This document shows positions 1 to 47,416 of a stretch of 64,000 nt of DNA, one piece after another (positions within the stretch are counted from its first letter, which is position 1; each line of letters begins with the position of its first letter). Location of the stretch: contig NC_057718.1 in the NCBI RefSeq assembly GCF_004010195.1, positions 68,830,449 through 68,894,448 of the forward strand. The letters run 5' to 3'. The stretch is from Chiloscyllium plagiosum. Taxonomy: Eukaryota. The notes beneath the pieces were generated by a model. That model saw only the letters and a program-made list of their open reading frames with translations, was not told the origin of the DNA and made no database searches. The position numbers and the translations under genes were made by a program.

Positions 1-170
1 TGAAGAAGTTTTCCTCTTCACCCCCACCCTCCTCTAGCTTATCTCTCCACGCTTCAGGCTCTCTGCCTTTATTCCTGATGAAGGGCTTTTGCCCGAAACG
101 TCGATTTTGCCTGTCCTCGGATGCTGCCTGAATTGCTGTGCTCTTCCAGCACCACTGATCCAGAATCCAG
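1..170 (+). mobile_element. Penelope-like element 3' end (pLTR fragment) with hammerhead motif at 71-106
   Basis: attcCTGATGAagggcttttgcccGAAAcgtcgatt followed by ...ctcggatgctgcctgaattgctgtgctcttccagcaccact; same family as the 50005-50330 copy, which carries GIY-YIG C-terminal coding remnants. Confidence 0.75.
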
Positions 171-4092: not shown

Positions 4093-4799
4093 GTAAGTGG
4101 ATAGGTGATCTTATGGAACCTAATGGAGCAGAATTGGTCAAAATTAGAATTTTGTCAGGTTTAGCAAGAATCTTATCAGATTTAGAAAAAAAAGTCTGCA
4201 TCCTGACAAGTTATAGAAGTTGAGCACTTTGGTGTGATATTCTATCAAATTAATTTGAATTTGAAGTGCACATTGAGTTGGGATTTTTTGCACTGACATG
4301 TTTTCATTTTTATTCCTTGCTCAGTTACCATTTGTATAATTTTGAAAATTCTGTCATTTCTTACCACTGCAATGTGAAGAATTGGGCCATTGTATAACAC
4401 AAAGGATGTAATTCAGCCCATTGTTCTTGTGCCAGCTCTTTGAAAGAACTAAAAATGAGTCCCAGTCTTCCTCAAAATCCTGAAAGCTTTAAATATAAAT
4501 CCAATCCCTTTTTAAGGTCACAATTGAATTTGCTTCCAGTGCCCTTTTGCATAGCACATGGTAAGACATTGCATAAACCGAATTCCCCTCATTCATCCTG
4601 GTTCTTTTGCTAATTATTTAAGATGTATTCCCTTTGGTTACTGATCTTCCTACAATTGGAAGCAATTTCCTACTTCTTAAATTTCTACATTATTTTTAAC
4701 TGTTTATTACATTTTTTCCTTCTTGATATGGAGAAGAATTCCATTTTCTTTAGACTCTCAACATATAATGAGTATTTTTCATCAGTTGTTGAAGAGAAT

Positions 4800-6854
4800 C
4801 CTGAGGGACAGGATGTACATGTATTTGGAAAGGCAAGGACTGATTAGGATAGTCAACATGGCTTTATGCGTGGGAAATCATGTCTCACAAATTTGACTGA
4901 GTTTTTTGAAGAAGTAACAAAGAGGATTGGTGAGGGCAGAGTGGTGGACATGGTCTGTATGGATTTCAGTAAGGCATACGACAAGGTTCCCCATGGGAGA
5001 CTGGTTATCAAGGTTGGATCTCATGGAATACAGGGAGAACTAGCCATTTGGATACAGAACTGGCTCAAAGGTAGAAGACAGAGGATTGTGGTAAGGGTTG
5101 TTTTTCAGACTGGAGGCCTGTGACCAGCGGAGTGCCACGAGGATCGGTGCTGGGTTCACTATTTTTCGTCATTTATATAAATGATTTGGATGTGAGCATA
5201 AGAGGTATAGTTAGTAAGTTTGCAGATGACAGCAAAATTGGATGTGTAGTGAACAGCGAAGAAAGTTACTTCAGAGTATAACGAGATTAGATTAGATTAC
5301 TTACAGCGTGGAAACAGGCCCTTCGGCCCAACAAGTCCACATCGCCCTGCCGAAGCGCAACCCACCCATACCCCTACATTTACCCCGTACCTAACACTAC
5401 GGGCAATTTAGCATGGCCAATTCACCTGACCTGCACATCTTTGGACTGTGGGAGGAAACCGGAGCACCTGGAGGAAACTCACGCAGACACTGGGAGAACG
5501 TGCAAACTCCACACAGTCAGTCGCCTGAGGCGGGAATTGAACCCGGGTCTCTGGCGCAGTGAGGCAGCAGNNNNNNNNNNNNNNNNNNNNNNNNNNNNNN
5601 NNNNNNNNNNNNNNNNNNNNNNNNNNNNNNNNNNNNNNNNNNNNNNNNNNNNNNNNNNNNNNNNNNNNNNNNNNNNNNNNNNNNNNNNNNNNNNNNNNNN
5701 NNNNNNNNNNNNNNNNNNNNNNNNNNNNNNNNNNNNNNNNNNNNNNNNNNNNNNNNNNNNNNNNNNNNNNNNNNNNNNNNNNNNNNNNNNNNNNNNNNNN
5801 NNNNNNNNNNNNNNNNNNNNNNNNNNNNNNNNNNNNNNNNNNNNNNNNNNNNNNNNNNNNNNNNNNNNNNNNNNNNNNNNNNNNNNNNNNNNNNNNNNNN
5901 NNNNNNNNNNNNNNNNNNNNNNNNNNNNNNNNNNNNNNNNNNNNNNNNNNNNNNNNNNNNNNNNNNNNNNNNNNNNNNNNNNNNNNNNNCCGTGCCGCCC
6001 ACCTTGATCAGATGGGCCAATGGGCTGAGGAGTGGCAGTTGGAGTTTAATTTAGATAAATGTGAGGTGCTGCATTTTGGAAAAGCAAATTTCAGCAGGAC
6101 TTATACACTTAATGGTAAGGTCCTAGAGAGTGTTGCTGAACAAGAGACCTTGGAGTGCAGGTTCATAGCTCCTTGAAAGTGGAGTCGCAGGTAGATAGGA
6201 TAGTGAAGAAGGCGTTTGGTATGCTTTTCTTTATTGGTCAGAGCATTGAGTACAGGAGTTGGGAGGTCATGTTGCGGCTGTACAAGACATTGATTAGGCC
6301 ATTTTTGGAATATTGCGTGCAATTCTGGTCTCCTTCCTATCGAAAAGATGTTGTGAAACTTGAAAGGGTTCAGTAAAGATTTACAAGGATGTTGCCAGAG
6401 TTGGAGGGTTTGAGCTTTAGGGAGAGGTTGAATAGGCAAGGGCTGTAATCCCTGGCACCTCGAAAGCTGACTAGTGACCTTATAGAGGTTTATAAAATCA
6501 TGAGGGTACGGATAGGGTAAATAGACAAGATCTTTCCCTGGGGTGGGGGAGTCCTGAACTAGAGGCAGAAATACAAGTTTAGGGTGAAAGGGGAAAGATA
6601 TAAGAGACCTAAGGGCAACCTTTTCACGCAGAGAGTGGTGCGTGTGTGGAATAAACTGCCAGAGGAAGTGATGGAGGCTATTACAATTGCAACATTTAAA
6701 AGACATCTTGGTAGGAATATGAGTAAGAAGGGTTTAGAGGGATATGGGCCGGGCGCTGGCAGGTGGGACTAGATTGGGTTGTGATATCTGGTTGGCATGG
6801 ATGAGTTGGACCGAAAGGTCTGTTTCCATGCTGTATGTCTCTATGACTCTATGA
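4800..6854 (+). mobile_element. 5'-truncated CR1/HER1-type LINE (RT domain to 3' tail), interrupted by a SINE and an N gap
   Basis: ORF fragments GKSCLTNLTEFFEEVT...DFSKAYDKVPHGRL, LEYCVQFWSP and FTQRVVRVWN; tail ctctatgactctatga. Confidence 0.92.
5284..6001 (-). mobile_element. HE1-like V-SINE inserted in CR1 (spans N gap 5571-5989)
   Basis: (GATTA)n tail and reverse-complement V-SINE body; head cgtgccgccc follows the gap. Confidence 0.88.
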
Positions 6855-7780
6855 ATGTATAATTGAACACCGTCATTTCTGGTATCACGAGTAAAATTCT
6901 TTTTAACCTATTCCACAATCTTGACGTTATTTCTAAATTGTGATTCCTAGAAATAGGTAGAATTTTAGTTGAGGTTGGTTTTTAAAAAGGGCCACATCTG
7001 ACATAGACAAGAATGATACCCATACAGTGAATAGGAGCCAAGTGTTTTATTTCCTGTGTCTGATTTAAATAATGCAGAGCAGTATCCCTCCTCAATCTGG
7101 CAGGATTGATGTTAGGGTTATGGGATGGGAGCTGAAACTGGATAGAGCATTAGGTGGCAGGGACCCAAGCAAATAGTCATTGGTATTAAATTGTTACAGG
7201 GTTTTTGAAGCTGCACAAAAATAAGAAAACGTAAAGTGAGTAATGAGTTAATTGTGAGGGACTTTCATTTCATATTTGATAAATTAATTGGCAAAGGTAG
7301 CTTGGAAGATGAGTTTATGAAAATTATTTTAGATGGTCTTTTACCTAGCTGATTCCTTGACAACTGTTCCAGAAAACTCTTTTAGATTTAGCATTGTGTA
7401 ATGAGTCTGGCATGTTTGTTAATCTTCAATTAACAGATCTTGGGAAAGTTTGATCATTAATATGACTGACTTTAAAGCAAGTTTTGGAGCTGTATGATTA
7501 AGTTGGAAATAGGTATCTTTAAATTTAAACACATTCAGTTATGGAGGTTTGAGAAGTGTGTGGGTTAAGTTATTTTGAGAAATTAGTTAAGATAAATAAG
7601 CCATGGCAATATATGAATTAATTCATATTTTCAACTATTATACATTCGATTGAGTCGTAAAACCTTTGTTGGAAGAATTCTACAGCCACATCTGAGTAGA
7701 TAAGTTTGTGATAGAATTAGTTTAAAAGATTTCTGATGTTATGAAAAAGACAAGTAATTCTGTGATTCGGGAGGGTTTCG

Positions 7781-8924: not shown

Positions 8925-10030
8925 AGTGAGTTTTGAGAAGATTTGTAGCTCAGGTTGAGGTTCTGGATGTAGGTTTGCTCGCTGAGCTGGGAGGTTCATT
9001 TCCAGATGTTTTGTCACCCTACTAGGTAACATCTTCAGTGGGCCTCAGGCGAAGCGGTGATTCCTGCTTTCTATTTATGTGTTTAGGTTTCTTTGGGTTG
9101 ATGATGTTATTTCCTGTGGTGATGTCATTTTCTGTTCTTTTTCTCAGGGGGTGGTAGATGGGGTCTAACTCTGTTTGTTGAGAATTCTGGTTGGCATGCC
9201 ATGCTTCTAGGGGAATTCTCGTGCTTGTCTCTGTTTAGCTTTCCTAAGTTGGATGTATTGTCCCAGTCGAAGTGGTGTCCTTCCTTATCTGTATGTAAGG
9301 ATACTTTGTAGGGGATTTTGTATTCAAAAAGAATGGGTACCATGGGTACCCAATGAACACACTCCGCCGATTTCTCAGCAACAAACCCAAGCAAGCAGAC
9401 AAAGCATGTCCAGAAACCTTAGCCGCTCTCCCCTACATCAAAGACATCTCGGACATGATTGCCAAACTACTCAGACCCATTGGCATCATGGTAGCCCACA
9501 AACCCACCAACACACTGAAACAGCAGCTAATGAACTTGAAAGACCCTATACAGACAACAAGCAAAACTAATGTCATTTACAAAATACTGTGCAAGAACTG
9601 TAACAAGCCCTACTTTGGACAAACCGGCAGAAAACTAGCCACTAGGATATGTGGACACCAACTAGCCACAAAATGACATGACCCTCTCTCACTCGTATCC
9701 TTACATACAGATAAGGAAGGACACCACTTCGACTGGGACAACACATCCATCTTAGGACAAGCCAAACAGAGATATGCACAAACATTCCTAGGAGCATGGC
9801 ATTCCAACCGGAACTCTATCAACAAACACATCGGGTTAGACCCCATCTATCACCCCCTGAGAAAAATAACAGAAAATGACATCGCTAACCCAAAGAAACC
9901 CAAACACACAGATCGAAAGCAGGAATCATGTACACTGCTTCGCCTGAGGCCCACTGAAGTTGTTACCAAGTAAGGTGATGAAATGTCTGGAAACGAATAT
10001 CCCAGCTCAGCAAGCAAACCTACATCCACA
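8925..10030. mobile_element. Penelope-like element, inverted-repeat structure, with GIY-YIG endonuclease remnant on +
   Basis: ORF 9353-9676 (ALPYIKDISDMIAKLLRP...NVIYKILCKNCNKPYFGQTGRKLATRI) is the PLE RT-thumb/GIY-YIG region. 8960-9300 is the reverse complement of ~9695-10030. Decayed hammerhead motifs near 9002-9042 (-) and 9951-9990 (+). Confidence 0.9.
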
Positions 10031-10400: not shown

Positions 10401-11684
10401 GTGGTGAAATTTGAGGCTCTGTGAGTCTTTGTTCTGGGGGAAGAGAGTGGCTGGATCGTGGCGCCATGTGGTCCGCCGCAAGGGCTTTCTGTTTTTATAA
10501 GTGTCATTGCAGTGAGAGAATGCAAAAAAAAGAGAAACGCTGAAATTAAGGTTTAATAATACTTGGGTTAAAAAAGGAAAGTTTCAATGGAGATTATACC
10601 ATGCTGAGAGTGTTTGTCGTTTAAAAATTTTGGTTTGTTCAAATACTGATTCTGAAAATCCTTTTAAGGAACTATTTTGCCTTGTTCGAATCAGGATCTC
10701 AATTCAAAGTGTTTTGTGGGCTGTGTATTGGGGCAGATTTTCTTTCTACATTGAAATTGTACAACATTAAGTCCTTTTTAAAATGATCAAGCTTAAAACA
10801 AATTGAGTGCCTTGATGTGTTTGAAATTCTACAATACCTGTTTAAAAAGGGACAGTTGGGTCAGTGGTCATGGTTTAACCAGATGAGAGTATTGTATTAA
10901 AATATCTTTGCTGCTGCGCAGCATGTTTACAAAAAGAAGAATGCATTTTTAGTTTGATGGTTGGTTAAGATTTTCTAGACAATATTAGAACTTGAGGCTG
11001 AGCTGTTTAAATTCTGTTAATTATTGTTAAGATTTCATTGGCCCCCTTCAAATTGCAAATTTAAAGAATGTTGATCACTACCAAAATTGCCTCCATAATT
11101 TCAACTGTTTTAGTCGGGAAGTTTCATTTGGAGAACATATTTTAATATATTCTGCATTTGTTTCCCACAAATATTTGAGACTTAAATCTGAACTGAAACT
11201 GCCTCTTAAATGCAAGAGCACAGGAAACATTTTGTTGTTTTCTTGCTGTTCCAGACAGCTTTCACATTAGCCAAATATCAATTTGTTAAAAGAAAATAAT
11301 TTTGGAATAACCTGAATGGGGGACCTGCGTGGGTTTGATTTTAGGACCATTGATTGTTGTTTGTACTGCCTAAACAATTCAGTTAATTATAATGTAGAAG
11401 TTTATGGATTGTATAAAACTTGGTAGTGTCATAGACAGTGAACAGAGTAACAGACTTCAAGAATTCAAAGAGTGTTGAAATAAGCAGACACAATTTAGTG
11501 TAGTTAAATGTGTGACTGTCTTCATACGGATACCCACCCTGGCAAGGAAGGAATGAAAGAGAAGATGCAAAGATACTTTCAGCAGCTAACATCGTCTCTA
11601 AAGTTTCTCCATTCACAGCACATCTTCAGACCATCGCCCACCCCTCCACAGCCAGTTCCAACAGATTCAATCAGCTTCCCAGCC

Positions 11685-11981
11685 ATGAGCACGAAATATC
11701 AATATGAAATTGATGAGGAGGTCGGTACGCTTCTTGTCAGTGGCCATCCAATGGACATTACGCCATTTGAGCTTTACCATATGAGATATGAAGATTCACT
11801 GATCAAGCTAACATCACAACAGCCAGTTGGCATTGTTACGTTTAACAGCAGAGCGGGGGCAGAAGCAGCAAACAATGCTGCGTTCACCTGGCCTGCAGCT
11901 GCTGCACTGCACGCTCAGTTGCACTGGTATCCTCTATCTGAAAAGTATCTGCAAGAATGGAAGTCTTGTCAGTTTAGTTAA
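11685..11981 (+). pseudogene. RBPMS2: Intronless processed copy of RBPMS2/RBPMS (RRM RNA-binding protein), internally deleted but still open; probable UTR-derived flanks ~11520-12300
   Basis: GCCATGAGC start. [21 protein letters not shown]...[31 protein letters not shown] resembles EEVRTLFVSGLP.DIKPRELY...[28 protein letters not shown]. The C-terminus [18 protein letters not shown]...WKSCQFS resembles [17 protein letters not shown]...GWK.RQFC. No introns; many substitutions at conserved residues. Confidence 0.85.
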
Positions 11982-12316: not shown

Positions 12317-13108
12317 GATAAAAGGAGGGAATGAGAATGTATATAGGGTACAATCAAATAGGGGAAAGTGAGGACTGCAGATGCTGGAGACCAGAGTTGA
12401 AAAGTGTGGTGCTGGAAAAACACAGCAGGCCAGGCAGCAACCAAGGAGCAGGAGAATCAACGTTTTGGGCTGAAGAAGGGCTTATGCCTGAAACTTCGAT
12501 TCTCCTGCTCCTCGGATGCTGCCTGGCCTGCTGTGTTTTTCCAACACCACACTTTTCAACTATAATCAGGTAGGGAAAGAGTTAAGTTCTGAGTTTTGTG
12601 AAACAAGAGGTTCAGCTGAGCATTACTAAGATCAGATATGAACTTGCAGTTAACACTGGGTGCTGGAGGCAAGGGTAATAGGTTAACAAGGTAGAAAAGC
12701 ATTCGTTATGTAGAGCCATTTAACAATATTGAAAGCATTCAGTATGTAAGGTCAGTTTAACAAGGTGAAAAGTATTCATTATGTGAAGCCAGTTACGGTT
12801 AAGAACATTCATTGTGTAACAGCAGGTAGCTTAGTCTTTACTATTGATGCTTGCTGATTGTAATGGTCACCCAATCAATATGCACACTGCCTTATCTGGA
12901 TGTCCCACCCTGTAAAATGACTATATAATTCATTAAGAAACTGCTATTCCAGAGAAGACCGTGAACTCATGTCTCTGTGCATGTGGGCGATCATTCTCTC
13001 TCCCTCCAAGGGCTGGAATAAAGATGAAGGAGGTAAAGCCATACTGTGCCTCTGAGTGTTTTGCTTTGACTGAGGGAGGGGAGGAGGGGGAGGGGCAACG
13101 GGACAACA
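12317..13108 (+). mobile_element. Solo LTR-like element (copy 1), interrupted by the PLE hairpin
   Basis: TATATAA near 12922, AATAAA near 13017, ends ...gggacaaca; clearly homologous to 15840-16313. The 5' boundary is uncertain. Confidence 0.6.
12360..12560. mobile_element. Short hairpin-like non-autonomous Penelope pLTR derivative
   Basis: gttgaaaagtgtggtgctggaaaaacacagcaggccaggcagca is inverted as tgctgcctggcctgctgtgtttttccaacaccacacttttcaac. Hammerhead-like ctgaagaagggcttatgcctgaaac in the loop; imperfect direct repeats ta.aatca..taggg.aaag flank it. Confidence 0.75.
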
Positions 13109-14854: not shown

Positions 14855-17800
14855 AGAGTATCTTTTAATCACAAATGGATTGGAGGAGCGGGAGTAGTAG
14901 TTTTGATTAGGGATAACGTTATAGCTGTAGTTAGGGATAATATTCCTGGAAAACCTCAGAGGGAAGTTATTTTGGTGGAACTGAGAAACAAGAAAGGGAA
15001 GATCACCTTATTGGGATTGTATTGGAGATCCCCTCCAAATAGTCAGTGGGAAGTTGAGAAACAAATTTGTAAGGAAATCTCAGTTATCTATAAGAATAAT
15101 AGGTTGCTAATGATACGGGATTTTAACATCCCAAACATAGATTGGGACTGCCATAGAGTTAAGGGCTTAGATGTAGAGGAATTTAATGTGTACAAGAAAA
15201 TTTTCTTATTCAGTATGTGGATGTACCTACCTGAGAGGGTGAAAAACATGACCTACTCTTGGAAAATCAGGCTCAGCAGGTGACTGAGGTGTCAGTGGGA
15301 GAGTACTTAAGGGATAATGTTCATAATTTTATTAATTTTAGAATCGTTATTGAAAAGGATAGACCAGATCTAAAGTTAAAGCTTTAAACTGGAGGGAGGC
15401 CAATTTTGACAATATTAGGCAAGAACTTTAAAAAGTTAATTTAGGAAGGATGATTGCAGGTAAAGGGATGGCTGGAAAATGGGAAGCCTTCAAAGATGAG
15501 ATAACGAGAATCCAGAGACAGTGTGTTCCTGTTAGGATGATAGGCAAGGCAAGGATGGTAGGTGTAGGGAATGCTGGATCACTGGAGAAATTAAGATTTT
15601 GGTCAAGAATAAGAAGGAAGCATATGTCACGTATAGACGGCAAGGATCGAGTGAATCCCTAGAAGAGTAAAGAGATAGTGGAGTATACTTAAGAGGGAAA
15701 TCAGGAGGGCAAAAAGGGGACATGAGCAACCGTTGTCAAATAGGGTGAAGGAGAATCCAGAGGGATTCTACAAATACATTAAGGACAAAAGAATAATTAG
15801 GGAGAGAATAAGGGTCCTTAAAGATCAGCAAGGCCACAGGAGAGGGTGAGAAAGTGTATAAGGTATGAGAAAGTAGGGAAAGAGTTTTGAGTTTGTAAAG
15901 CATGAGGTTCAGCTGAACATGATTCAGATCAGATAAGAACTTAGTTAACAATGGGGTGCTGGAGGCAAGGGTAATGGGTTAACAAGGTGGAAAAGCATTC
16001 ATTATGTTATGCCATTTAACAAGATGAGGAAGCGTTCAGCATGTAAAGTTAGTTAACGAAGTGAAGAGTATTCATTATGTATAATGCCACATGGCTTAAT
16101 CTCTACTATTGACACTTGCTGATGCTCCTCCCTGTAAAGTGACTATATAATTCATTAAGAATCTGCTGTTCCAAAGAAGACTGAGAACTCGTGTCTCTGT
16201 GCACGTGGGTGATCATTCTCTCTCCTTCCAGGGTCCGGAATAAAGATAAAGGAGGTAAAGCCATACTGTGTCTCTGAGCGTTTTGCTTCGACTGAGGTGG
16301 GAACGGGATGACAAGGGGTGAGATACTAAATGAGTATTTTGTACCAGTGTTTACTATGGAGAAGGGCATGCAAGCTAGAGAACTTGGGAAAATAAATAGC
16401 GACATCTTAAAATGTCCATATATCAGGGGAGGTGGTGCTGGACATCTTAAAATGCAAAAAGGTGGATAAATCCCTCGGATCTGATCATGTGTAGCCTAGA
16501 ACTCTGTGGGAAGCTAGGGAAGTGATTGCTGGGTCCCTTGCTGAGACATTTGTAACATTGATAGCCACACGTGAGATGCCAGACTGGACGATGGCTACCA
16601 TGGTGCCACTATTTTTAAAAAGTGGTAAGGAAAAGCCAGGCCAGTGAGCCAGACATTGGTGGTGACCAAGTTGTTGAAGGGAATTCTGAGGGACAGAATT
16701 TACATGTCATTTACATTTGGAAAGACAAGGACTGATGAGAGATGGTCAACATGGATTTGTGCGTGGGAAATCATGTCTCACTAACTTGATTGAGTTTTTT
16801 GAGGAAGTAGCAAAGAAGATTGATGAGGGCAGAGAGGTGGACATGATTTATATGGACTTCAGTAAGGCATTCAACAAGGTTCCTCATGGTAGGTTGATTA
16901 GCAAGGTTAGGTCACATGGAATACAGGGAGAACTAGCTTGAAGGTAGGAAAACACCGCTTGGTGTTGGAGGTTGCTTTTCAGACTGGAGGCTTGTGACCA
17001 GTGGTGTGCCACAAGGATCGATGCTGAGTCCACTGCTTTTCATCATTTTATATGAATGATGTGGATGTGAATGTAGGAGGTATAGTTAGTAAGATGTTAG
17101 TTTGCAGATGACGCCAAAATTGGAGATGTAGTGGATAGCAAGGAAGGTTACCTTAGAGTACAATGGAATCTTGATCATATAGGCCAATGGGCTGAGGCCT
17201 GGAGATGGAATTTAATTTAGATAAATGTGAGATGCTGCATTTTGGAAAGGCAAATCTTAGCAGGACTTATACACTTAATGGTCAGGTGCTGGGGAGTTTT
17301 GCTAAACAAAGAGACCTTGGAGTGGAGGTTCTTGGTTCCTTGAAAGTGGAGTTGTAGGTAGACAGGATAGTGAAGATGGCATCCGATAGAGAGCATAGAA
17401 CATTACAGCACAGTACAGGCCCACGATGTTGTGCCAACCTGTGGAGCCAATCTGAAGCCCATCGATCCTAGATTATCCCATTTTCATCCATATGATTATC
17501 CAATGACCATTTAAATGCCTTTAAGCTTGGCGAGTCTACTACTGTTGCAGGCAGTGCATTCAACGCGTCCACTACTCTATAGGTAAAGGTAAATAAATAA
17601 AGGTAAGTACTTGCCTTTATTTATTGGTCAGTTGTGGCTGTACAGGACATTGGTTAGACCACTTTTCAAATACTGCGTGCAATTCTGGTCTCCCAGCTAT
17701 AGGAAGTATGTTGTGAAACTTGAAAGGGTTCAGAAAAGATTTACAAGAGTGTTGCCAAGGTTGGAGGGTTTGAGCTACAAGGAGAGGCCGAATAGGCTCC

Positions 17801-18190
17801 AGCTGTTTTCCTGGAGCATTGGAGGCTGAGGAATGACCTTATAAAGTTATAAAATCATGAAGAGCATGGATATGATGTATAGCCAAGGTCTTTTCTGGTG
17901 GGGGGCAGAGCAGGGGGCTTGGGGGGTTGGTGGTGTGGCGAGAGAGCCCAAAGCTAGCTGGCATAGGTTTAAGGTGAGGGAGGAAAGATTTAAAAGGGAT
18001 CTGAGGTATAACTTCACAGACAGTGTGGTGCATAAATGGAATCTGGATGGATTTATGACTATAAAGCGTTTTGAGTGATATGGGCCAAAAGCTGGCAAGT
18101 GGGACTAGGTTACTTAAAATATTTGGTCTGCATGGACACATTGGTATCTGAAGTGTCTGTTACAATGCTGTGCTGCTCTATGACTCTAAA
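14855..18190 (+). mobile_element. Long CR1/HER1-type LINE (endonuclease + RT + tail), disrupted; contains an LTR-like insert and an antisense CR1 tail at ~17385-17590
   Basis: APE-like GGAGVVVLIRD...LLGLYWRSPPNS...DFNIPNIDW; RT QHGFVRGKSCLTNLIEFFEEV...YMDFSKAFNKVPH; tail ctctatgactct. Confidence 0.9.
15840..16313 (+). mobile_element. Solo LTR-like element (copy 2) inserted in CR1
   Basis: Homologous to 12565-13108; TATATAA, AATAAA and a ...gatgaca end. CR1 sequence resumes on both sides, with repeated gggtgaga at the junctions. Confidence 0.62.
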
Positions 18191-19400: not shown

Positions 19401-20071
19401 CTGTATGAAGGAAAGCTAAGAAATTTTGTTCTTCCCATAAATACCCATCACATTGCATGCATATACGTACCAAGCCTGTATTCGTCATAACTATCCTCTT
19501 AATGCCTCTAAGGGAATTGTTACTAATGTTTTGGCATTAACAGCTTTGTTGCTGCTGTTGAAATCACATTCTCACTTTGGGTCAGCATATTTTAGGTGAT
19601 GTCATCACACAACCTCTCACTTTCAACTGCCTTTCCCCAGACCCCTGCAATTTGACTCACAGCGTGTCAGTTATCAACACAGACCCTGCCTTCCAATGGC
19701 TTTTCAATGTTTTTCAGTTTTGACTTTTGAAAACCTGGTCACCCAATTTTTTTGCTATCAATCTTTCAAACATTAGAAATATTTTTTAACATTTACCCTC
19801 TCAAGTGTCAGTGAGCTTTCGAACAGCTATGATCAGTGTTATCTTAAACTTCTCTACTGTAAGAAGAATAAACTCAACTAGACTTGGCAATTCCTTATCC
19901 ATTGCATCATTCTAATAATGCAATGATAGTAATAATTCTATTAGTTAACAATGGACTAGTTTTGATGAAGATATATGTATTATGTAAGTTTTTGTGCATA
20001 TGTACATCATTTTGATCGGCAGAAATGTAAACAGTGTTGTGGTTCTGTTCGCCGAGGTGGGAATTTGTGTT

Positions 20072-20111
20072 GCAGACGTTTCGTCCCCTGTCTAGGTGAC
20101 ATCCTCAGTGC
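20072..20111 (-). ncRNA. Minimal type I hammerhead ribozyme motif (PLE-associated), intact core
   Basis: Minus strand reads GCA-CUGAGGA-U-GUCACCU-AGAC-AGGGGAC-GAAA-CG-UC-UGC. Stem I GCA/UGC, stem II, complete core and GUC cleavage triplet. Confidence 0.75.
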
Positions 20112-20911
20112 TTGGGAACCTCCTGTGAAGCGCTTCTGTGATGTTTCCTCCGACATTTATAGTGGTTTGTCTCTGCCGCTTCCGGTTGTCAGTTCCAGCT
20201 GTCCGCTGCAGTGGTCGGTATATTGGGTCCAGGTCGATGTGTTTGTTGATTGAATCTGTGGATGAGTGCCATGCCTCTAGGAATTCCCTGGCTGTTCTCT
20301 GTTTGACTTGTCCTCTAATAGCAGTGTTGTCCCAGTCAAACTCATGTTGCTTGTCATCTGCTAAGGATAGCTGGTCGAGTCCTTTCGTGGCTAGTTGGTG
20401 TTCATGGATGCGGACCGTTAGCTGTCTTCCTGTTTGTCCTATGTAGTGTTTTGTGCAGTCCTTGCATGGGATTTTGNNNNNNNNNNNNNNNNNNNNNNNN
20501 NNNNNNNNNNNNNNNNNNNNNNNNNNNNNNNNNNNNNNNNNNNNNNNNNNNNNNNNNNNNNNNNNNNNNTGTTGTGGCCCTTTTGAATAGTGTCTTGATG
20601 CAACTTCATTTGTGTGTGTTGGGGTGGTTGCTATCGTAGTTCAGGACTTGGTCTGTGTGTGTGGCTTTCCTGTATACCTTTGTGGTGAATTCTCCGTTAG
20701 GTGTTCTCTGTACCATCACGTCTAGGAATGGGAGTTGGTTGTCCTTTTCTTCCTCTCTAGTGAGGAGATTCAATCAATAAGCACATCGACCTGGACCCAA
20801 TATACCGACCACTGCAGCGGACAGCTGGAACTGACAACCGGAAGTGGCAGATTCAAACAACTATAAATGCTGGAAGAAACATCACAGAAGCGCTTCACAG
20901 GAGGCTCCCAA

Positions 20912-20951
20912 GCACTGAGGATGTCACCTAGACAGGGGACGAAATGTCTGC
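20912..20951 (+). ncRNA. Minimal hammerhead ribozyme motif (sense copy; C>T change in stem III)
   Basis: GCA-CTGAGGA-tgtcacctagacaggggac-GAAA-tgtc-TGC. Confidence 0.65.
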
Positions 20952-21599
20952 AACACAAATTCCCAGCTCGGCGAACAGAACCACAACAACGAGCACCCGA
21001 GCTACAAATCTTCTCACAAACTTTGAAATGTAAACAGTATTTTGCTGTCCCCAATAAGAAAAGTGAAAATTAGAACCAAGGGTGGTAAGCAAATGTGTTC
21101 TCTATATTTTTAAGAGCTGCAAATAAGTGATGCCTCAGTATTTGATTAACTGTGTAGTTAGACTTATTCCATTTGTAGTGAGTGAGAACAAATGGATTAA
21201 TAGTATGCCACACAAGGCTTAAAATGATAAATTAGTGGTTATTTAAATGTGGTGTTTACCTAATGACAACGCAGTCTCCAGTCGTCTTAGAAATTCTCAA
21301 ATATATTTCAGTTTCATTGACCTATACAAGTCTTATCAGTCAAGTAAAACCCAGATCAAAAAGAACCCATTAATTCTAAGTCTTCAACTAAGAACGTGAA
21401 CTATGTCTTTTTCTTCTTTCAATAAATGGTTCCTATAAATACCTTTTTTCCACTCTGGTACGCAGTCCTGTTAGACTTGAAAGTCAGCTTTTCTTGTTTT
21501 GCTGGTGTCAACAGGCTGAACAGGAATTAGTCATTAATAGGGTCACAGGAGAGCTTGGACTTGTCAGTTTCACAGATGGCTGCCTAAGTTAGATACTAA

Positions 21600-23427: not shown

Positions 23428-24206
23428 CTCGCAACAATAGAGTAGCTTGAGATTCCTCTCCTCAGGTACTCTCCTGCTTTGTTGTGCAATTGCCCTTGCC
23501 ACCCCTTTTTCTCCAGAAAGTCTATGCCTGATCCAGTTATTTTTGCAAATGATCATTCTGTTTCCCCACCTTATTTTCATCTTTTAAAAGTCTTGAACAG
23601 GTATTGCCCTAAATCTGTGCCCACCTTTCCAAATAATTTGATGCTCGATTCTTTCCAAACAGGTTTCTACCCTATCAAATCAATGCACAGTTTTGATCAA
23701 AGTGGCAAATGGCATCTTCTGTGACAATGCTGTACTTTAACAGGATGTGCCACACAGTCCTGCTCCTGTGTCACTGTAATGTTCCCAAGCTTGGTGAGAC
23801 TGCCTTAGCTGGTTGATTCTTGCTGATTAATATGGACCAGTGTATCTACGGTCCTGGTTTTCTACTTTAGTCATTTATCTCTATGGTACCCAGAGGATTA
23901 GCCTTGAGCCTTTTTGCTTTCTCATTTCCATTTTGCACCTTGATGACATCATCTGACATGTGATAGGTTCCCACAGATACATTAACTACACTCTGCTCTA
24001 TATTACTGGCAACTCTGTTCACCTTTCTGCTGCCTCAGTGTTAGCAGCCATCTTGTTGATATCTGACCATGGATGAATCATAGTTTCTTTCAGTTAAACA
24101 TCAAAACCATTTGTCTTCAGCTCTACCATTCATTTTCTACTGTAGACACTCATTCTGCCTCTGTCCCTGTTGCCTGTTGGGCCACATTGTTCACAACTTC
24201 CATCCT

Positions 24207-24330
24207 ATCTGATGAAGGAGCAGCACTCCGAAAGCTAATGCTTCCAAATAAACCAGTTGGACTATCACCTGGTGTTTGCATGATTTTTAACTTTGTCCAC
24301 CCCAGTCCAGCACCAGCTCCTCCACATCAT
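24207..24330 (+). mobile_element. PLE pLTR fragment with hammerhead core (same family as 415-2037)
   Basis: CTGATGAaggagcagcactccGAAAgctaatgcttccaaataaaccagttggactatcacctggtgt. Confidence 0.7.
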
Positions 24331-25039: not shown

Positions 25040-25520
25040 CAGCATAGAGGCTCAGTGGTTAGCACTGCTGCCTTACAGTGCAAGGGACCTGGATTTGGTT
25101 CTAACCTTGGGCGACTGACTGTGTGGAGTTTGCACATTCTCCCTATGTCTGCGTGGATTTCCTCCGGGTGCTCCCGTTTCTTTCCACGAATCAAAGATGT
25201 GCAGGTTAGGTGAATTGGCCATGCTAAATTGCCCAAAGTGTTCAGAGGTGTGTTGGTGGATAGATGTAGAATAGTAGGGGATTGGGTTTGGATAGGATGC
25301 TCTTTGGATGGTCGTTGTGGACTTGTGGGGCTGAAGGGCCTGTTCTGGATTAGAGTGGTGCTGGAAAAGCACAGCAGTTCACGCAGTATCCTGCTCCTGG
25401 GATGCTGCCTGCACTGCTGTGCTTTTTCAGCACCACTCTAATCCAGAATCTGGTTTCCAGCATCTGCAATAATTGTTTTTACCTATGAAGGGCCTGTTTC
25501 CACACTTGGGATTCTATGAT
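25040..25520 (+). mobile_element. V-SINE with nested PLE-derived hairpin (25345-25485) flanked by TSD TGAAGGGCCTGTT
   Basis: SINE body interrupted by ctggattagagtggtgctggaaaagcacagcag...ctgctgtgctttttcagcaccactctaatccag; tgaagggcctgtt is duplicated on both sides. Confidence 0.85.
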
Positions 25521-28699: not shown

Positions 28700-30722
28700 G
28701 AAAGTCTTTTCCCAGGGGTGGGGGAGACGAGAACTAGAGGGCATAGTTTAGGGTGAGAGGGGAAAGATATAAAAGAGACCTAAGGGGCAACTTTTTCACG
28801 CAGAGGGTGGTACGTGTATAGAATGAGCCATCAGAGGAAGTGGTGGAGGCTAGTACGATTGCAACATTTAAAAGGCATTTGGATGGGTATATGAATAGGA
28901 AGTGTTTAGAAGGATATCGGCTGGGTGTTGGCAGGTGAGACAAGATTGGGTTGGGATATCTGGTCGGCATGGACGAGTTGGACTGAAGGGTTTTTTTAGA
29001 TTTGTTTTTAGATTACTTAGAGTGTGGAAACAGACCCAACAAGTCCACGCCGACCTGCCAAAGCACAACCCACCCAGACCCATTCCCCTACATTTACCCC
29101 TTCACCTAACCCTATGGGCAATTTAGCATGGCCAATTCACCTAACCTGCACGTTTTTGGACTGTGGGAGGAAACCGGAGCACCCGGAGGAAACCCACGCA
29201 GACACTGGGAGAATGTGCAAACTCCACACAGTCAGTCACCTGAGGCGGGAATTGAACCAGGGTCTCTGGCGCTGTGAGGCAGCAGTGCTAACCATTGTGC
29301 CACCGNNNNNNNNNNNNNNNNNNNNNNNNNNNNNNNNNNNNNNNNNNNNNNNNNNNNNNNNNNNNNNNNNNNNNNNNNNNNNNNNNNNNNNNNNNNNNNN
29401 NNNNNNNNNNNNNNNNNNNNNNNNNNNNNNNNNNNNNNNNNNNNNNNNNNNNNNNNNNNNNNNNNNNNNNNNNNNNNNNNNNNNNNNNNNNNNNNNNNNN
29501 NNNNNNNNNNNNNNNNNNNNNNNNNNNNNNNNNNNNNNNNNNNNNNNNNNNNNNNNNNNNNNNNNNNNNNNNNNNNNNNNNNNNNNNNNNNNNNNNNNNN
29601 NNNNNNNNNNNNNNNNNNNNNNNNNNNNNNNNNNNNNNNNNNNNNNNNNNNNNNNNNNNNNNNNNNNNNNNNNNNNNNNNNNNNNNNNNNNNNNNNNNNN
29701 NNNNNNNNNNNNNNNNNNNNNNNNNNNNNNNNNNNNNNNNNNNNNNNNNNNNNNNNNNNNNNNNNNNNNNNACTAGGTAACATCTTCAGTGGGCCTCAGG
29801 TGAAACACTGCTGATAATTCCTGTTTTCTATTTACATGTTTGGGTTTCTTTGGGTCTGGAACAAAACATCTGGAAATGAACCTTCCAGCTCAGCGAGCAA
29901 ACCTACATCCAGAACCTCAACCTGAGCTACAAATCTTCTCAAAACTCACCACTGGGCTCCTCCATTTTTTTCTAATGAAGAATGAGTGATTAACCTGATC
30001 AACTGTGGAATTCACCATGATGGAGCATCTCAGAGCAAATCTAATAGCATTTGACAAGGCAGAAAATGCTGCCATGAAGGTTTAGACAACTGGAGTCTTG
30101 ATTTTGGGTACCAGTGATAAAAGGAATTTTCAGGATGGTGCAAGAATGTTGTGCTCAGTTTTCCAATAGTAATGAAGTGTAGCTAGAATTGATTGTCTTG
30201 GAGGAAGACATACCGTCTTCTCCTCCTCTAGAGGGCCAAAGCCTGCTAATTACCACAGTAGTAGTATTGCTGGTGTCTGTGAAACAACTAGCCCAGATAG
30301 CTATAACCAATGTAGAGATGATATAGTCTGGAGATGTGCCTTCCAAAATCAAAGGTCTTCATGGTTGTCCTCCAAGGCCTTCTGCATTATCTTTATTACT
30401 AGTTTAGAAAGCTTTCACTGCATAAGCAGTCCAGAACTAGAGGGCATAGTTTAGGGTGAGAGGGGAAAGATATAAAAGAGACCTAAGGGGCAACTTTTTC
30501 ACGCAGAGGGTGGTACGTGTATGGAATGAGCTGCCAGAGGAAATGGTGGAGGCTGGTACAATTGTAGCATTTAAAAGGCATTTGGTTGGGTATATGATTA
30601 GGAAGGGTTTGGAGGGCTATGAGCCGGGTGCTGGCAGGTGGGACTAGATTGGGTTGGGATATCTGGTCGGCATGGACAGGTTGGACCGAAGGGTCTGTTT
30701 CCATGCTGTACATCTCTGACTC
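28700..30722 (+). repeat. CR1 3' fragment containing a ~1.6 kb duplicate of 47240-48805 (CR1 tail + SINE + gap + PLE fragment + unique DNA)
   Basis: 28820-30427 aligns with 47240-48805 apart from scattered substitutions; 28730-28828 is repeated at 30433-30531. Confidence 0.85.
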
Positions 30723-32005
30723 GAACTTTCTTTACCTTTTTGTTTTGATAGGAACACATTTATGTTCCCTATTAAGTAAACCAATTATCTGTTATTGTAC
30801 TCTCTCTTTGACCCTCTTTCCTTTATTCTGCTTGATTCTCTGTGGTATCATGAACCATTTTTGTCAGAGCCAACTTTTTCATTTTAATCTCAGCACTCTT
30901 TGAGTGTCCATCCATTTCCTTCACAGAACTGTCAGTCAGTACCTGCATCCTCATCATCTCTCAGGAGGCTTTTTTTCTGCTAATCTACTGTTTTACTTGC
31001 CAGTCATTAATTCCAAACTGCCTTGGCTCAAACCCTTTTCCACTTCTTCTCTGAATTTAGCTCTCTTCTCATTTACCATTGTCAACTTCGATTACTGCTT
31101 GTTCTTTTTCATTACTTCTCAGAACCAAATATTTGGATTGCTGTTTCTCGAAAATGATATCCTGCTGAGGAATATTCCTCTAATTCTACTAGTTGCAAGA
31201 TGTTTTTCCTTTTACATTGAGCTGTAAACACAAAATTGAAGAAATTTCTCCACACATTTTAGGAATTCTTTTTTACACTTCTTTTGCTCCAGTTCACACA
31301 AGGATAATTGATTTCTACAGTAGCACTCTTGTTGTTCGTGTATTTTTCTGAAGTTTGTGCGCTGGTACGATCCTGCTTTTCCTTCCTGTTAATTTCATGT
31401 AGAGTAAGCAGCAGACCTACTCACGCTTACTAACTCATATTAACTCTTGCCATGTCTGTAACAGTAGTTAATTCAATATTTCCAGGTTTTTTTTTATTCC
31501 TCCTGACTAAATAGTAGCTAGGGCTTCCCCTTTATTTGAACAAATTCACCATTTTGTAACTATATTGTTTGAGGCATGATGGAAAATTCCATTTGGTCAG
31601 TTTGCATCTGTGTTGATGGCCAACAAGTTAATATTGCAATAATAAAAGCAATGCACTGTGGCTGTTGGAGATCTGAAGTACAAACAGAAACTCAGCAGGT
31701 CTGGTAGCATCTATAACTCTTTTTGGTGTCACAATAGACTGGAAAAGTTAACTTTGTGTTTATCACCACAGATGCTGTCTGAACTGAGTTTCTCCAGCAC
31801 TTTGTTTACAGTTAACATTGCATGCTTGGATTCCTTATCAGAATGACAGGGTAGTGGGTGGATCTAATTGGAATGCTCTTCAGAAGGTTGGTGTGGACCT
31901 AATGGGCCGAATGCCCTGCTTCCGTGCTAGAGGCATTGAGCGTAATCTTTCAATCCTCCTGAGGTATATGGATGCTATCAGAGCATTGGAGAATGGCAAA
32001 TTAAA

Positions 32006-32267
32006 GCCAAGATTAGAGTGGTGCTGGGAAAGCACAGCAGGACAGGCAGAATCCAAGGAGCAGGAAAATTGACGTTTTGGGCAAAAGCCCTTCATCGAAA
32101 GACAGAGTTAACTTTTCCAGTCTATTGTGACACCAAAAAGAGTTACGTAAGCTACCATTCCTGATGGCTGAAATGTCAATTTTTCCTGCTCCTCAGATAC
32201 TGCCTGACCTGCTGTTCTTTTCCAGCACCACTCTAATCTCCAGTATCTGCAGTATCCACTTCTGCCT
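32006..32267. mobile_element. Short PLE-derived inverted-repeat insertion with captured local sequence
   Basis: gattagagtggtgctgg... is inverted as ...ccagcaccactctaatc; imperfect TSD aatggcaaa(g)ttaa at 31992 and 32268. Confidence 0.75.
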
Positions 32268-32296
32268 AATGGCAAAGTTAACCCCATCATTCATAA

Positions 32297-33729
32297 GCTG
32301 AAAATGTGTTGCTGGAAAAGCGCAGCAGGTCAGGCAGCATCCAAGGAGCAGGAGAATCGACATTTCGGGCATGAGCCCTTCTTCAGGAATGAGGGATTTG
32401 GGGGAGGGGTGTTGGAAATGCGATAGGTGGAAAGAGGTTAAGGTGAGGGTGATAGGCCAGAGTGGAGGTGGGGGCTGAGAGGTCCGGAAGAAGATTGCAG
32501 GTTAGGAAGGCAGTGCTGAGTTCAAGGGTTGGGACTGAGACAAGGTGGGGGAGACAATGAGGAAACTGGAGAAATCGAGTTCATCCCTTGTGGTTGGAGG
32601 GTTCCTAGGCGGAAGATGAGGCACTCTTCCTCCAGCCGTTGTGTTACTATGGTCTGGCGATGGAGGAGTCCAAGGACCTGCATGTCCATGGTGGAGTGGG
32701 AGGGGGAGTAAAAGTGTTGATCCATGGGGTGGTTGGTCCGGGTGTCCCAGAGGTGTTCTCTGAAACGTTCCGCAAGTAGGCGGCCTGTCTCCCCAATATA
32801 GAGGAGGCCACATCGGGTGCAGCAAATGATGTGTGTGGAGATGCNNNNNNNNNNNNNNNNNNNNNNNNNNNNNNNNNNNNNNNNNNNNNNNNNNNNNNNN
32901 NNNNNNNNNNNNNNNNNNNNNNNNNNNNNNNNNNNNNNNNNNNNNNNNNNNNNNNNNNNNNNNNNNNNNNNNNNNNNNNNNNNNNNNNNNNNNNNNNNNN
33001 NNNNNNNNNNNNNNNNNNNNNNNNNNNNNNNNNNNNNNNNNNNNNNNNNNNNNNNNNNNNNNNNNNNNNNNNNNNNNNNNNNNNNNNNNNNNNNNNNNNN
33101 NNNNNNNNNNNNNNNNNNNNNNNNNNNNNNNNNNNNNNNNNNNNNNNNNNNNNNNNNNNNNNNNNNNNNNNNNNNNNNNNNNNNNNNNNNNNNNNNNNNN
33201 NNNNNNNNNNNNNNNNNNNNNNNNNNNNNNNNNNNNNNNNNNNNNNNNNNNNNNNNNNNNNNNNNNNNNNNNNNNNNNNNNNNNNNNNNNNNNNNNNNNN
33301 NNNNNNNNNNNNNNNNNNNNNNNNNNNNNNNNNNNNNNNNNNNNNNNNNNNNNNNNNNNNNNNNNNNCTCCTCCACCTTGTCTCAGTCCCAACCCTCGAA
33401 CTCAGCACCGCCTTCCTAACCTGCAATCTTCTTCCTGACCTCTCCACCCCAACCCCCACTCTGGCCTATCACCCTCCCCTTGTCACCCTCCCCTTGTCAC
33501 CCTCCCCTTGTCACCCTCCCTCCACCTATCGCAGTTCCAACACCCCTCCCCCAAGTCCCTCCTCGCTACCTTTTATCTTAGCCTGCTTGGCACACTTTCC
33601 TCATTCCTGAAGAAGGGCTCATGCCCGAAACGTCGATTCTGCTGCTCCTTGGATGCTGTCTGTCCTGCTGCGCTTTTCCAGCAACACGTTTTCAACTCTG
33701 ATCTCCAGCATCTGCAGTCCTCTCATTCT
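32297..33729. mobile_element. Penelope-like element, inverted-repeat structure with 14-bp TSD
   Basis: CCCATCATTCATAA at 32283-32296 and 33730-33743. Minus ORF ...CTRCGLLYIGETGRLLAERFREHL...RLEEECLIFRLGTLQPQGMN is GIY-YIG. Hammerhead motifs at 32355-32390 (-) and 33603-33638 (+). Confidence 0.92.
33603..33638 (+). ncRNA. Minimal hammerhead ribozyme motif (PLE-associated)
   Basis: attc-CTGAAGA-a-gggc-tcat-gccc-GAAA-cg-tc-gatt; core and stem II intact, stem I short. Confidence 0.65.
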
Positions 33730-34503
33730 CCCATCATTCATAAACTGTGTAAGGATGAACCCAGCAAATACAGACCAATCAACTTAACTTTCATGGTGGG
33801 AAGGCTTTTCAAAACAGTGTCTTGAATCAGTCACTTGGGCAAATGTAGATTGATTAAGGATAGCCAGCATGGTTGGGTTAAAGATAAGTTGTATTTAACT
33901 AACTTGCTTGAGATTTTTGACGTAACTAAGAAGTTTGCTGATGGTAATGTAATTGATGTGGAGCACAAAGACTTCCAAATGGTTTTGACAAGTGCTACAT
34001 AAAAGGCTTATCAGCAAAGTTGCAGTCCATATAATTAAAGGGTTAGTGAAAACAAAAATAAAGAATTGATCGAGTGATAGAAACAGAGTTGTGGTGAATG
34101 GTTTTTCTCAGATTGAAGAAAATTATATACTGGGTTCCCTGGAATGATCCTAGGACCACAGCTTTTCATTTTCTATATTAACAAGCTAGACTTTGTCCAA
34201 GCCACTGTTGCACAATTTGTAGATGATGTTAAACATGGAATCACTAAACTTTGAGGATAGTGATAAGCTTCAAGAAGGCATATGCAGGCTGATATGGATG
34301 AACAAGTTGGTGATGGGATTTAATCAGAAAATGGAGAGTTGATTCATTTTGGTAGGAAGAATAAAGAAAGATAAGATAAAGTAAACAGCCTCCTTCAACA
34401 AGGGCTGCAGGTTAGAGGAGGCTGGGATATTTATGTACATATCACTTGATGGCAGGTTAGGTTGATAAACTGTATGGGATTCTGGGCATATAACAAAACA
34501 CCA

Positions 34504-35821: not shown

Positions 35822-36089
35822 GTGACTCAAGACTCTGCTTTCTGGTTCTGGTGACAGGCTGTGTATCTGTAGGGAGGATCCGTGACACTGACATATGTAA
35901 GATTACCACAACAGATTTTGTTCCACTTCAAGAAGAAACAACAGATGAAGAACGAATCACTGCCTTAAGGAAACTGCTGAACTCTGGGATGTTTTATTTT
36001 TCATCAGCTTCTGGTTCGACTTTTGATCTTAGTCTGTGTGCACAGAAGCTGTATGCAAAAGACCATGAGGCGGGAATCCGATTTTTCTG
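35822..36089 (+). CDS. SYNJ2: SYNJ2-like coding exon (probably exon 3), Sac1 domain
   Basis: Acceptor ttttcatttccag|GTGAC and donor TG|gttaga; 268 bp, phase 1-2. Translates GDSRLCFLVLVTGCVSVGRIRDTDICKITTTDFVPLQEE...RKLLNSGMFYFS...FDLSLCAQK...RFF(W). LVLVTGC.SVGRI and DF.PLQEE are SYNJ2-like. Confidence 0.93.
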
Positions 36090-38104: not shown

Positions 38105-39258
38105 TCCCCCCTGTATTCCATGAGATCTAACCTTGCTGATCAGTCTCCCATGGGGATCTCACAGAATATAGGGAGAACTAGCCATTTGGATACAGAACTG
38201 GATCAAAGGTGGAAGACAGAGGGTGGTGGTGGAGGGTTGTTTTTCAGACTGGAGGCCTGTGACCAGTGGAGTGCCACAAGGATCGGTGCTGGGCCCTCTA
38301 CTCTTTGTCATTCACATATATGATTTGGATGCGAGCATAAGTGGTACAGTTAGTAAGTTTGCAGATGACACCAAAATTGGAGGTGTAGTGGGCAGCAAAG
38401 AGGGTTACCTCAGATTAAAACAGGATCTGGACCAGATGGGCCAATGGGCTGAGAAATGGCAGATGGAGTTTAATTCCAATAAATGCAAGGTGCTGCATTT
38501 TGGGAAAGAAAATCTTAGCAGGACTTATACACTTAATGGTAAAGTTCTAGGGAGTGTTGCTGAACAAAGAGACCCTGGAGTGCAGGTTCATACCTCCTAG
38601 GAAGTGGAGTCACAGGTAGATAGGATACGGAAGAAGGCGTTTGGTATGCTTTCCTTTATCGGTCAGAGTATTGAGCACAGGAGTGGCGGTTGTACAGGAC
38701 ATTGGTTAGGCTACTGTTGGAATATTATGTGCAATTCTGGTCTCCTTCCTATCGGAAAGATGTTGTGAAAATTGAAAGGGTTCAGAAAAGATTTACAAGG
38801 ATGTTGCCAGGGTTGGAGGATTTGAGCTATAGGGAGAGGCTGAACAGGCTGGGGCTGTTTTCCCTGGAGCGTCGGAAGCTGAGGGGTGACCTTTGTAGAG
38901 GTTTACAAAATTGAGGGGCATGGATAGGATAAATAGACAAAGTCTTTTGCCTGGGGTCAGGGAATCCAGAACTAGAGGGCATAGGTTTAGGGTGAGAGGG
39001 GAAAGATATAAAACAGACCTACGGGGCAACTTTTTCACACAGAGGGACATGTATGCAATGAGCTGCCAAAGAAGTGATGGAGGCTGGTACAATTGCAACA
39101 TTTAAGAGGCGTTTGGATGATTATATGAATAGGATGGGTCTGGAGGGATATGGGCCGGGAGCTGGCAGGTGAGACTAAATTGGGTTGGGATATCAGGTCG
39201 GCATGGACGGGTTGGACCGAAGGGTCTGTTTCCATGCTGTACATCTCTATGACTCTGT
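38105..39258 (+). mobile_element. 5'-truncated CR1/HER1 LINE with short inverted 5' segment; adjacent older antisense CR1 at ~37600-38100
   Basis: GVPQGSVLGPLLF...SKFADDTKIGG and LEYYVQFWSP; tail ctctatgactct. Confidence 0.92.
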
Positions 39259-39989
39259 AAATTTTCTTTTTGAGGACGACCCATTAGGGTGGCCCTTGCC
39301 AAACAATATTTGTGTACAAGATTGTTGATAGTCATTTGGCAGTTTTAAGATCACCATTACTGACACTAACATTAAAAAAAATTCCAGCTGTATTAATTTG
39401 ACTCAAGTTCCTCATCAGCTATAGTGGGATTTTAGCGGTCTCTATTATTAATCCAGATCTCTATATTGCTTGTCAAGCCCCAACACCATAATTTCTAGGC
39501 TTTAACCTTACCTAACCTAGTGAGTACACGTCTGTGTTGTTGACATAGAATTTTATCAGGTATAATTATAGTCATATTACATGAAGACCACTGAAGAGTA
39601 TAAATTTCATAAAACACCTATATACTATTATTTTGACAGTAATAGTTGTGACATTGGACAGCAGAGGGCAGCAAGTTCTAACAGCTGAATTGTAAACCCT
39701 GGAGCCATAAATCCTGGCCCCTGACTGAGAAATGAGTTGGCAGTCTGCCCACCTGAAACCCTCGTGCCATGTGTCAATGTTATGTTGGGAGCAACCTCAA
39801 TTTTTTGTTTGGGACTTCTGGTCTCTTCTGGGAGGAAGTCCTGCCATAGAGCCATGCTGGCCTATCTGATTGGCCAACAATATTGTAATTGCAGCAATGC
39901 TAGGACTGAATAAAGACTGAATCTGGCCTTAAAGACAAGTATGGAAATTTGGACTGGCCCAGCTAGCACAGCCAAGCAAGGAGTGTGAG

Positions 39990-47412: not shown

Positions 47413-47416
47413 TTTT

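Follow-up and report, generated by a model that had tools for sequence, protein, structure and literature searches.

The window analysed here, a stretch of 64,000 nucleotides from Chiloscyllium plagiosum (NC_057718.1, positions 68,830,449 to 68,894,448), contains genuine minimal hammerhead ribozyme motifs, which lie at the ends of Penelope-like element (PLE) relics within the introns of a gene that we take to be synaptojanin-like. All features given as hallmarks of PLE minimal hammerheads are present in these motifs, and the motif, its stems, its PLE context and its decay can all be observed in the window. We consider it very likely that they are minimal type I hammerheads from the pseudo-LTRs (pLTRs) of at least five PLE families, selected in the source elements and decayed in the copies.

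Hammerhead motifs and stem pairing in five families

All 11 motif positions listed in an earlier sequence-only reading of this DNA were recovered, with offsets of 1 to 4 nt. A core-only pattern gave 23 matches against 6.56 expected, a number reached by none of 100 shuffles, and many of these 23 are chance matches. With a strict descriptor that combines the core, an added nucleotide, stem II and GAAA-NN-UH, nine matches were found in the 64-kb window, compared with a mean of 0.12 and a maximum of 2 in 200 dinucleotide shuffles. Requiring a stem I of at least 2 bp left eight matches (0.03 expected), and requiring at least 3 bp left four (0.01 in shuffles). Because copies of a repeat are not independent, a test using one copy per family carries more weight than these counts.

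In such a test, 14 of 15 pairs at the three innermost positions of stem I, taken from one copy of each of the five families, were Watson-Crick. The 5'/3' arms are GCA/UGC in family A, CCA/UGG in B, CAC/GUG in C, UUC/GAU in D and GCU/AGC in E. Since MAFFT misaligned families A and B against C, D and E, the pairs were counted by coordinates. Of the 120 possible ways to combine 5' with 3' arms, only the true one reached 14 (mean, 5.6). Of the 24 that remain when A and B, which are related, are treated as one family, again only the true one reached 11/12; with four to five independent units, this is support, short of proof. The innermost pair occurs in three forms (A-U, C-G and U-A), the second also in three, and the third in two forms plus one U-U mismatch. 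Arms from the same family give 2 to 4 contiguous pairs, compared with 0 or 1 for arms from different families, except A with B (2). The proposal that the stem I flanks vary by family yet stay complementary is thus borne out, and stem II behaves likewise, being family-specific in sequence yet complementary. Two details of that proposal needed amendment. The stem I given as UC/GA does pair weakly, but its actual form is AUUC/GAUU with a U-U mismatch, and the copy at 24209 has the intact core described for it, but a stem I of UAU/AUG rather than CAC/GUG.

The hallmarks given by Cervera and de la Pena 2014 (PMC4209133) are an extra nucleotide before stem II, a G10.1-C11.1 pair and a palindromic 15.2-16.2 segment. 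A single unpaired nucleotide lies 5' of stem II in the window copies (U in families A and B, A in C, D and E), and G10.1-C11.1 closes stem II in the best copy of each of the five families. The 15.2-16.2 palindrome, which has no loop 3, is ACGU in A and D and AGCU in C. In family E it is ACGU, as read from the partner arm and the DNA run data, and in family B each of the two copies carries one CpG-type change. The earlier description of minimal type I hammerheads with a palindromic stem III in PLE pseudo-LTRs accordingly holds for five families.

No hammerhead family was found in Rfam at gathering score, nor among the 11 matches at E up to 10. When folded as single strands, seven of eight motifs were no better than their own shuffles (z, 0.5 to −1.6), a score that is uninformative at such short motif length. 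Weak descriptor matches at 6052, 6351, 11938, 14323, 17218, 17711, 46944, 58365 and 43399 had one or two core mismatches or lay inside other repeats and were discarded as chance.

The 11 listed copies represent eight insertions, the pairs 20072/20912, 9002/9951 and 32355/33603 each sharing one; the whole core is kept in 8 of the 11 and broken in 3 (Table 1). At least four PLE families had been proposed; five were found, with family C being PLE-like by architecture alone. The copy at 20072 is intact, as claimed, with 6 of 7 bp in stem II and the palindrome ACGU, yet it runs antisense to the host gene, and its inverted partner is predicted to sequester it.

Table 1. Hammerhead copies, carrier insertions and host exons in the window (position 1 is its first nucleotide)
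Feature	Position	Strand	Details
Family C copy, inverted arm of 1928 insertion	458-492	−	Core broken (U4G, G12A); absent from the sequence-only reading
Family C hammerhead	1928-1962	+	Stem I CAC/GUG; palindrome AGCU; core broken, G12A (AAAA, 1931)
Family C hammerhead	24206-24240	+	Intact core; stem I UAU/AUG; sense to host gene
Family B insertion, whole	8926-10028		Head-to-head; linker and GIY-YIG remnant 9299-9847
Family B hammerhead	9002-9041	−	Stem I CCA/UGG; core broken, G12A (AAAA for GAAA, 9005); G16.2A
Family B hammerhead	9951-9990	+	Core broken, A9U (9954); ~107 nt behind endonuclease remnant
Family A insertion, whole	20036-21024		Minus-strand 5'-truncated PLE and inverted arm 20766-21024
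Family A hammerhead	20072-20111	−	Fully intact; core 20108-20075; stem I GCA/UGC
Family A hammerhead, inverted arm of 20072 insertion	20912-20951	+	Intact core; C15.2U (20915)
Family D2 hammerhead	71-106	+	Intact
Family D2 hammerhead	50098-50133	−	Intact core; stem II mismatch (50102)
Family D1 palindromic mini-insertion	12352-12567		Centre at ribozyme core
Family D1 hammerhead	32355-32390	−	C15.2U (32359); arm of insertion 32296-33730
Family D1 hammerhead, other arm of 32296-33730	33603-33638	+	Intact; sense to host gene
Family D1 hammerhead	43331-43366	+	Intact; sense to host gene
Family D1 hammerhead	63911-63946	−	Core broken: G12A, G16.2A
Family E hammerhead	53632-53670 (motif 53636-53666)	−	U3-A8; G16.2A; missed by the sequence-only reading
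Family E GIY-YIG endonuclease remnant	54031-54309	−	~375 nt upstream of E ribozyme
Family E copy, inverted arm	54676-54712	+	Cut within first core box; A8; intact stem III
Host exon, SacI-homology domain	35822-36089	+	Pfam profile match
Host exon, SacI-homology domain	42152-42378	+	Pfam profile match
Host exon, SacI-homology domain	44.97-45.06 kb	+	Pfam profile match

Penelope-like carriers and the host gene

Families A, B, D and E are ordinary Penelope-like elements, with a GIY-YIG remnant and target-duplicated insertions. The hammerhead lies downstream of the endonuclease remnant by ~110 nt in family A, ~107 in B, ~190 in D and ~375 in E. Pfam GIY-YIG matches were all below the curated cut-off, with E-values of 0.01 for B and 0.0015 for both D and E (0.0015 to 0.058 overall) and none for A; the family E remnant matched GIY-YIG clusters at 0.94. 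The endonucleases of A and B are 63% identical, and those of E and D 48%. No protein remnant of family C was found within the window, and this family is assigned to the PLEs by architecture only: an inverted arm, a 34-bp tail and a perfect 16-bp duplication (insertion 415-2037).

The insertions have an inverted 5'-truncated arm, target duplications of 12 to 17 bp and one-sided tails of 36, 38, 34 and 33 bp in A, B, C and D1, a structure that matches the one described in PMC8557442. The family A insertion comprises the fragment at 20609-20773, a gap, an endonuclease remnant (20221-20475) and the pLTR, and has its 36-bp tail and a 14-bp target duplication at 20022 and 21025. The family B insertion has its 38-bp tail on the minus arm and a degraded 13-bp target duplication (two mismatches). 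Among the family D copies, the D1 insertion at 32296-33730 contains a GIY-YIG remnant (32525-32842) within a 17-bp target duplication (one mismatch), the D1 copy at 43331 has an endonuclease remnant upstream (42888-43142) and a 12-bp duplication, and the D2 copy at 50098 has a remnant at 50232-50338 and a 13-bp duplication. The D1 mini-insertion at 12352-12567 carries a plus-strand ribozyme copy with two changes (12470-12497).

Evidence of reverse transcriptase is a single 55-aa fragment (20609-20773) without a Pfam match, which we presume to resemble the end of a PLE reverse transcriptase. Families A and B look Poseidon-like, and the single cysteine in the stretch before the family B endonuclease fits Poseidon, a clade whose linker from reverse transcriptase to endonuclease is not zinc-finger-like. 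The D and E fragments start at the endonuclease; by C-terminal likeness these families may belong to Neptune, in which that linker is zinc-finger-like. The arrangement of a non-LTR retrozyme was not seen: self-comparison of the window gave only single or inverted copies and no head-to-tail tandem units.

Several shorter PLE pieces were also observed. At 25343-25483 there is a palindromic mini-insertion of the family D tail, without a ribozyme, centred just 3' of the cut site and flanked by a perfect 13-bp target duplication. A cluster of short PLE ends at 31693-32270 includes two decayed D2 copies, one cut within the core and one without stem II. Heavily decayed copies at 31715-31760 and 32098-32150 may represent a sixth family. 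In family D copies (e.g., 43331-43366), cofolding shows competition between the stem III palindrome and a second palindrome that overlaps the cut site; in D2, the first core box is also predicted to be able to pair with the cleavage strand.

The sequence-only reading placed these elements in one intron. The window in fact spans several, with SacI-domain exons inside it (E, 9e-8, 1e-18 and 9e-8, in the order of Table 1); the exon at 35822-36089 is on the plus strand, which sets the orientation of the host gene as plus. A fourth exon near 4.0 kb is probable from its splice signals and a motif; it has no Pfam match. An intronless RBPMS-like retrocopy lies sense to the host gene at 11600-11980 (plus), inside a 157-aa open frame, with 56 aa matching RBPMS2/RBPMS RRM structures (E, 4e-15). 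Duplicated stretches (29772-30427 vs 48150-48805, 98.6%; 28701-29258 vs 47120-47678, 95%) flank N gaps of ~470 bases, and each holds a cut family B ribozyme; they reflect either a recent duplication or an assembly artefact. The window also contains about eight copies of a 300-bp interspersed repeat and many LINE fragments (4784-6856, 16462-18189, 38155-39269, 45897-47417 and 54741-57502; RVT_1 E, 1e-15).

The U3-A8 pair of family E

In the family E motif (53636-53666, minus), U3 and A8 replace C3 and G8. Its stem I is AGCU/AGCU (4 bp), its stem II has 5 bp, and the predicted minimum fold consists of exactly these two stems. Two DNA and two RNA runs were aligned to 53490-53811 at 80% likeness, with changes recorded from 5% up and the best 40 of 65 change rows considered. 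In the DNA run from a second organism (X13), all three T>C and all five A>G places are among those rows and none falls at 53661 or 53666, so that neither G8 nor C3 reaches 5%. In the DNA run from the same organism (X1), all three T>C places are included, which excludes G8; four of five A>G places are included, and C3 is thus not strictly excluded. The change at 16.2 in the window copy is corrected by 79-80% of the depth in the DNA runs. On the strength of these runs, U3-A8 is very probably the norm of family E, at a likeness threshold that clips more divergent sister families and from contigs that give no phase between positions 3 and 8. RNA-only differences at 53768-53802 include transversions, and we therefore read them as another copy rather than as editing.

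The family E patterns had no match in the viral, metagenome or GTDB collections. A broader pattern found one viral locus, which lacks stem I, and at least 122 metagenome loci, mostly of one other family. This abundant, invertebrate-type family (L002-L123) shares its GCU/AGC stem I with family E but differs in having C3-G8. Among the metagenome motifs listed, 120 of 127 have C3-G8, and 79 of 127 have a stem I of at least 3 bp, though the pattern did not include stem I.

The U3-A8 swap has been published for Schistosoma Cercyon PLE hammerheads (PMC4209133) and for other natural hammerheads (Perreault 2011, PMC3088659). The likeness to these is a compensatory swap of C3-G8 as a family-level trait; the difference from the Schistosoma case is that family E is an abundant vertebrate family. 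Judging from sequence comparison, its U3-A8 pair is probably of independent origin, because its endonuclease is 48% identical to that of family D, which has C3-G8.

Depth at the E ribozyme is ~1.3 million, compared with 6 to 19 in the unique flank; this is not a copy number. The depth of the family E contig drops steeply just 5' of the ribozyme core (53655-53690): it is 1.28 million at 53633-53643, 12 thousand at 53677-53687 and 60 to 97 thousand further up. This ~100-fold drop upstream of the core indicates that most copies have their start at the ribozyme's 5' edge and not at its cut site; a poly-A run at 53671-53678 contributes to the dip.

Decay, activity and comparison with known systems

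Stem III has no loop, so that, to go by the literature, folding would be possible only as a double hammerhead. In the source element, two copies in one tandem transcript would pair in this way, with the ACGU or AGCU palindrome giving a 4-bp stem III between them and stem I then joining the 5' arm of one copy to the 3' arm of the other. Cutting would then follow C17 or A17, probably assisted by the protein of the element; both dimer cleavage and protein assistance are proposed here by analogy with published systems. Selection for cleavage would have kept the core and stems paired as the families diverged, including the change from C3-G8 to U3-A8 in family E. The window copies, which are 5'-truncated and mostly head-to-head, would have decayed since their insertion, and cleavage in place is very improbable.

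The suggestion that some copies may still be active was not upheld: there is no close tandem partner, the best copy appears sequestered, dimer energies are unfavourable, and G12 decays at the CpG rate. The window copies are probably inert fossils. Self-comparison of the window revealed no same-strand tandem partner near any copy. In read-through transcripts of the family A insertion from either strand, 39 to 40 of 40 ribozyme nucleotides are predicted to pair with the opposite arm. For eight short motifs, the cofold minimum is 8 to 15 kcal/mol below the predicted active dimer (nearest-neighbour energies, tertiary contacts left out), making dimer geometry possible but not the predicted minimum. 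G12 of family E is lost in 12% (X1) and 15% (X13) of the depth, compared with 8 to 21% at three neighbouring CpG positions; since it decays like other CpG sites, selection would have acted on source elements rather than on copies. In five D1 copies, CpG sites were changed at 1 of 5 in the core, 4 of 20 in the stems and 3 of 15 in the tail, while at non-CpG sites the ribozyme had no change in 85 and the tail had 11 in 230. This non-CpG conservation exceeds the prediction of pure neutral decay; tail subfamily differences and the choice of recognisable copies may account for the contrast. One RNA run (X21) covered the E ribozyme 8 to 39 deep on both strands, with no pile-up of ends there among 626 reads, a weak test in a poly-A single-cell library that we take neither for nor against cleavage; the other (X22) had zero reads aligned to 53490-53811.

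Against this background it is very unlikely that the intact sense-strand copies (75, 24209, 33607 and 43335) cleave in trans with transcripts of the same family and nick the host pre-mRNA. There are four intact cores on the host sense strand, the families are very abundant, to judge from the depth at the E ribozyme, and all 85 non-CpG ribozyme sites are unchanged, all of which would suit such cleavage. Opposing it are the dimer energies given above, the weak cleavage of minimal hammerheads even as dimers (PMC4209133) and RNA-seq from the anole, in which the cut site had no ends (PMC11167929). Nor are sense copies depleted (four sense and one antisense among fully intact copies, small numbers), as damaging cuts would tend to make them. 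A further version, which we regard as highly improbable, treats stem I as a family address: the two partners of a double hammerhead make stem I together, and its family-specific sequence would on this reading decide which copies pair. Given very many sense copies in introns, live PLE transcripts and their protein could then cut host pre-mRNAs in trans, one family at a time. If this were true, family E with its U3-A8 pair would offer a natural, amplified test of core covariation in a vertebrate.

It is unlikely, though less so, that conservation of the motif reflects a structural signal (for protein binding, transcript start or template end) for which cleavage is no longer needed. The fact that most E copies begin with the upstream edge of the ribozyme and not with the cut site would fit such a role, with the qualification that the poly-A run is partly behind the depth dip. 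So would two reports: hammerhead mutants inserted unimpaired in vitro (PMC11167929), and Naiad PLEs spread without hammerheads (PMC8557442). A compensatory swap at the tertiary 3-8 pair, however, fits selection on the catalytic fold, and G12, G8/A8 and a cleavable H17 are kept in every family. Hardly credible, and already largely refuted, is the idea that the complementarity arose by chance or by picking motifs by eye, with U3-A8 as two independent decay events in one copy. Stem I is just 2 to 4 bp long, seven of eight motifs fold no better than shuffles, and G8A, should position 7 be C, would be a change of the CpG type; yet the strict descriptor, the permutations and the DNA-run result for U3-A8 all speak against chance, as do the same placement of the motifs behind the endonuclease in four families and the metagenome family, with its identical GCU/AGC stem I and C3-G8 in 120 of 127 motifs listed. 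Selection for cleavage in the source elements, followed by decay in the copies, remains our preferred account.

The closest known system is the PLE minimal hammerhead, for which Cervera and de la Pena 2014 described family-level covariation. Also reported in that paper (PMC4209133) are several families within one genome that carry compensatory changes, pairs of copies on opposite strands and the swap to U3-A8. The window motifs share with this class the core boxes, the absence of loop 3, a short stem I, mostly single truncated copies and opposite-strand pairs 100 to 700 bp apart; against it, the stem I of family D (2 bp, U-U, 1 bp) is at the weak end. No cartilaginous fish appears in the vertebrate rows of the available part of its supplementary alignment, and our literature searches returned no paper with shark PLE hammerhead sequences, though Lunse et al. 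(RNA Biol 14:1499) may include shark examples. Hammerhead retrozymes have been reported in one chondrichthyan (Li et al. 2026, 10.64898/2026.07.22.740005). They share type I hammerheads related to those of PLE pLTRs, but form head-to-tail tandem arrays, whereas the window copies are single or head-to-head and often keep the endonuclease.

The best model for function is the Poseidon element of Anolis carolinensis, PAc (Frangieh 2024, PMC11167929), with which the window elements share a pLTR hammerhead and a one-sided tail. The anole hammerhead needs the protein of the element in order to cleave, and insertion in vitro does not require this cleavage; PAc is intact and was tested in vitro, while the window holds truncated relics only. 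The kind of motif, its family covariation and the U3-A8 pair are thus already published, and the sequences described here are new PLE minimal hammerheads that extend the feature to further vertebrate families and supply natural compensatory variants, in stem I, the stem III palindrome and the 3-8 pair, for testing how PLE hammerheads function.
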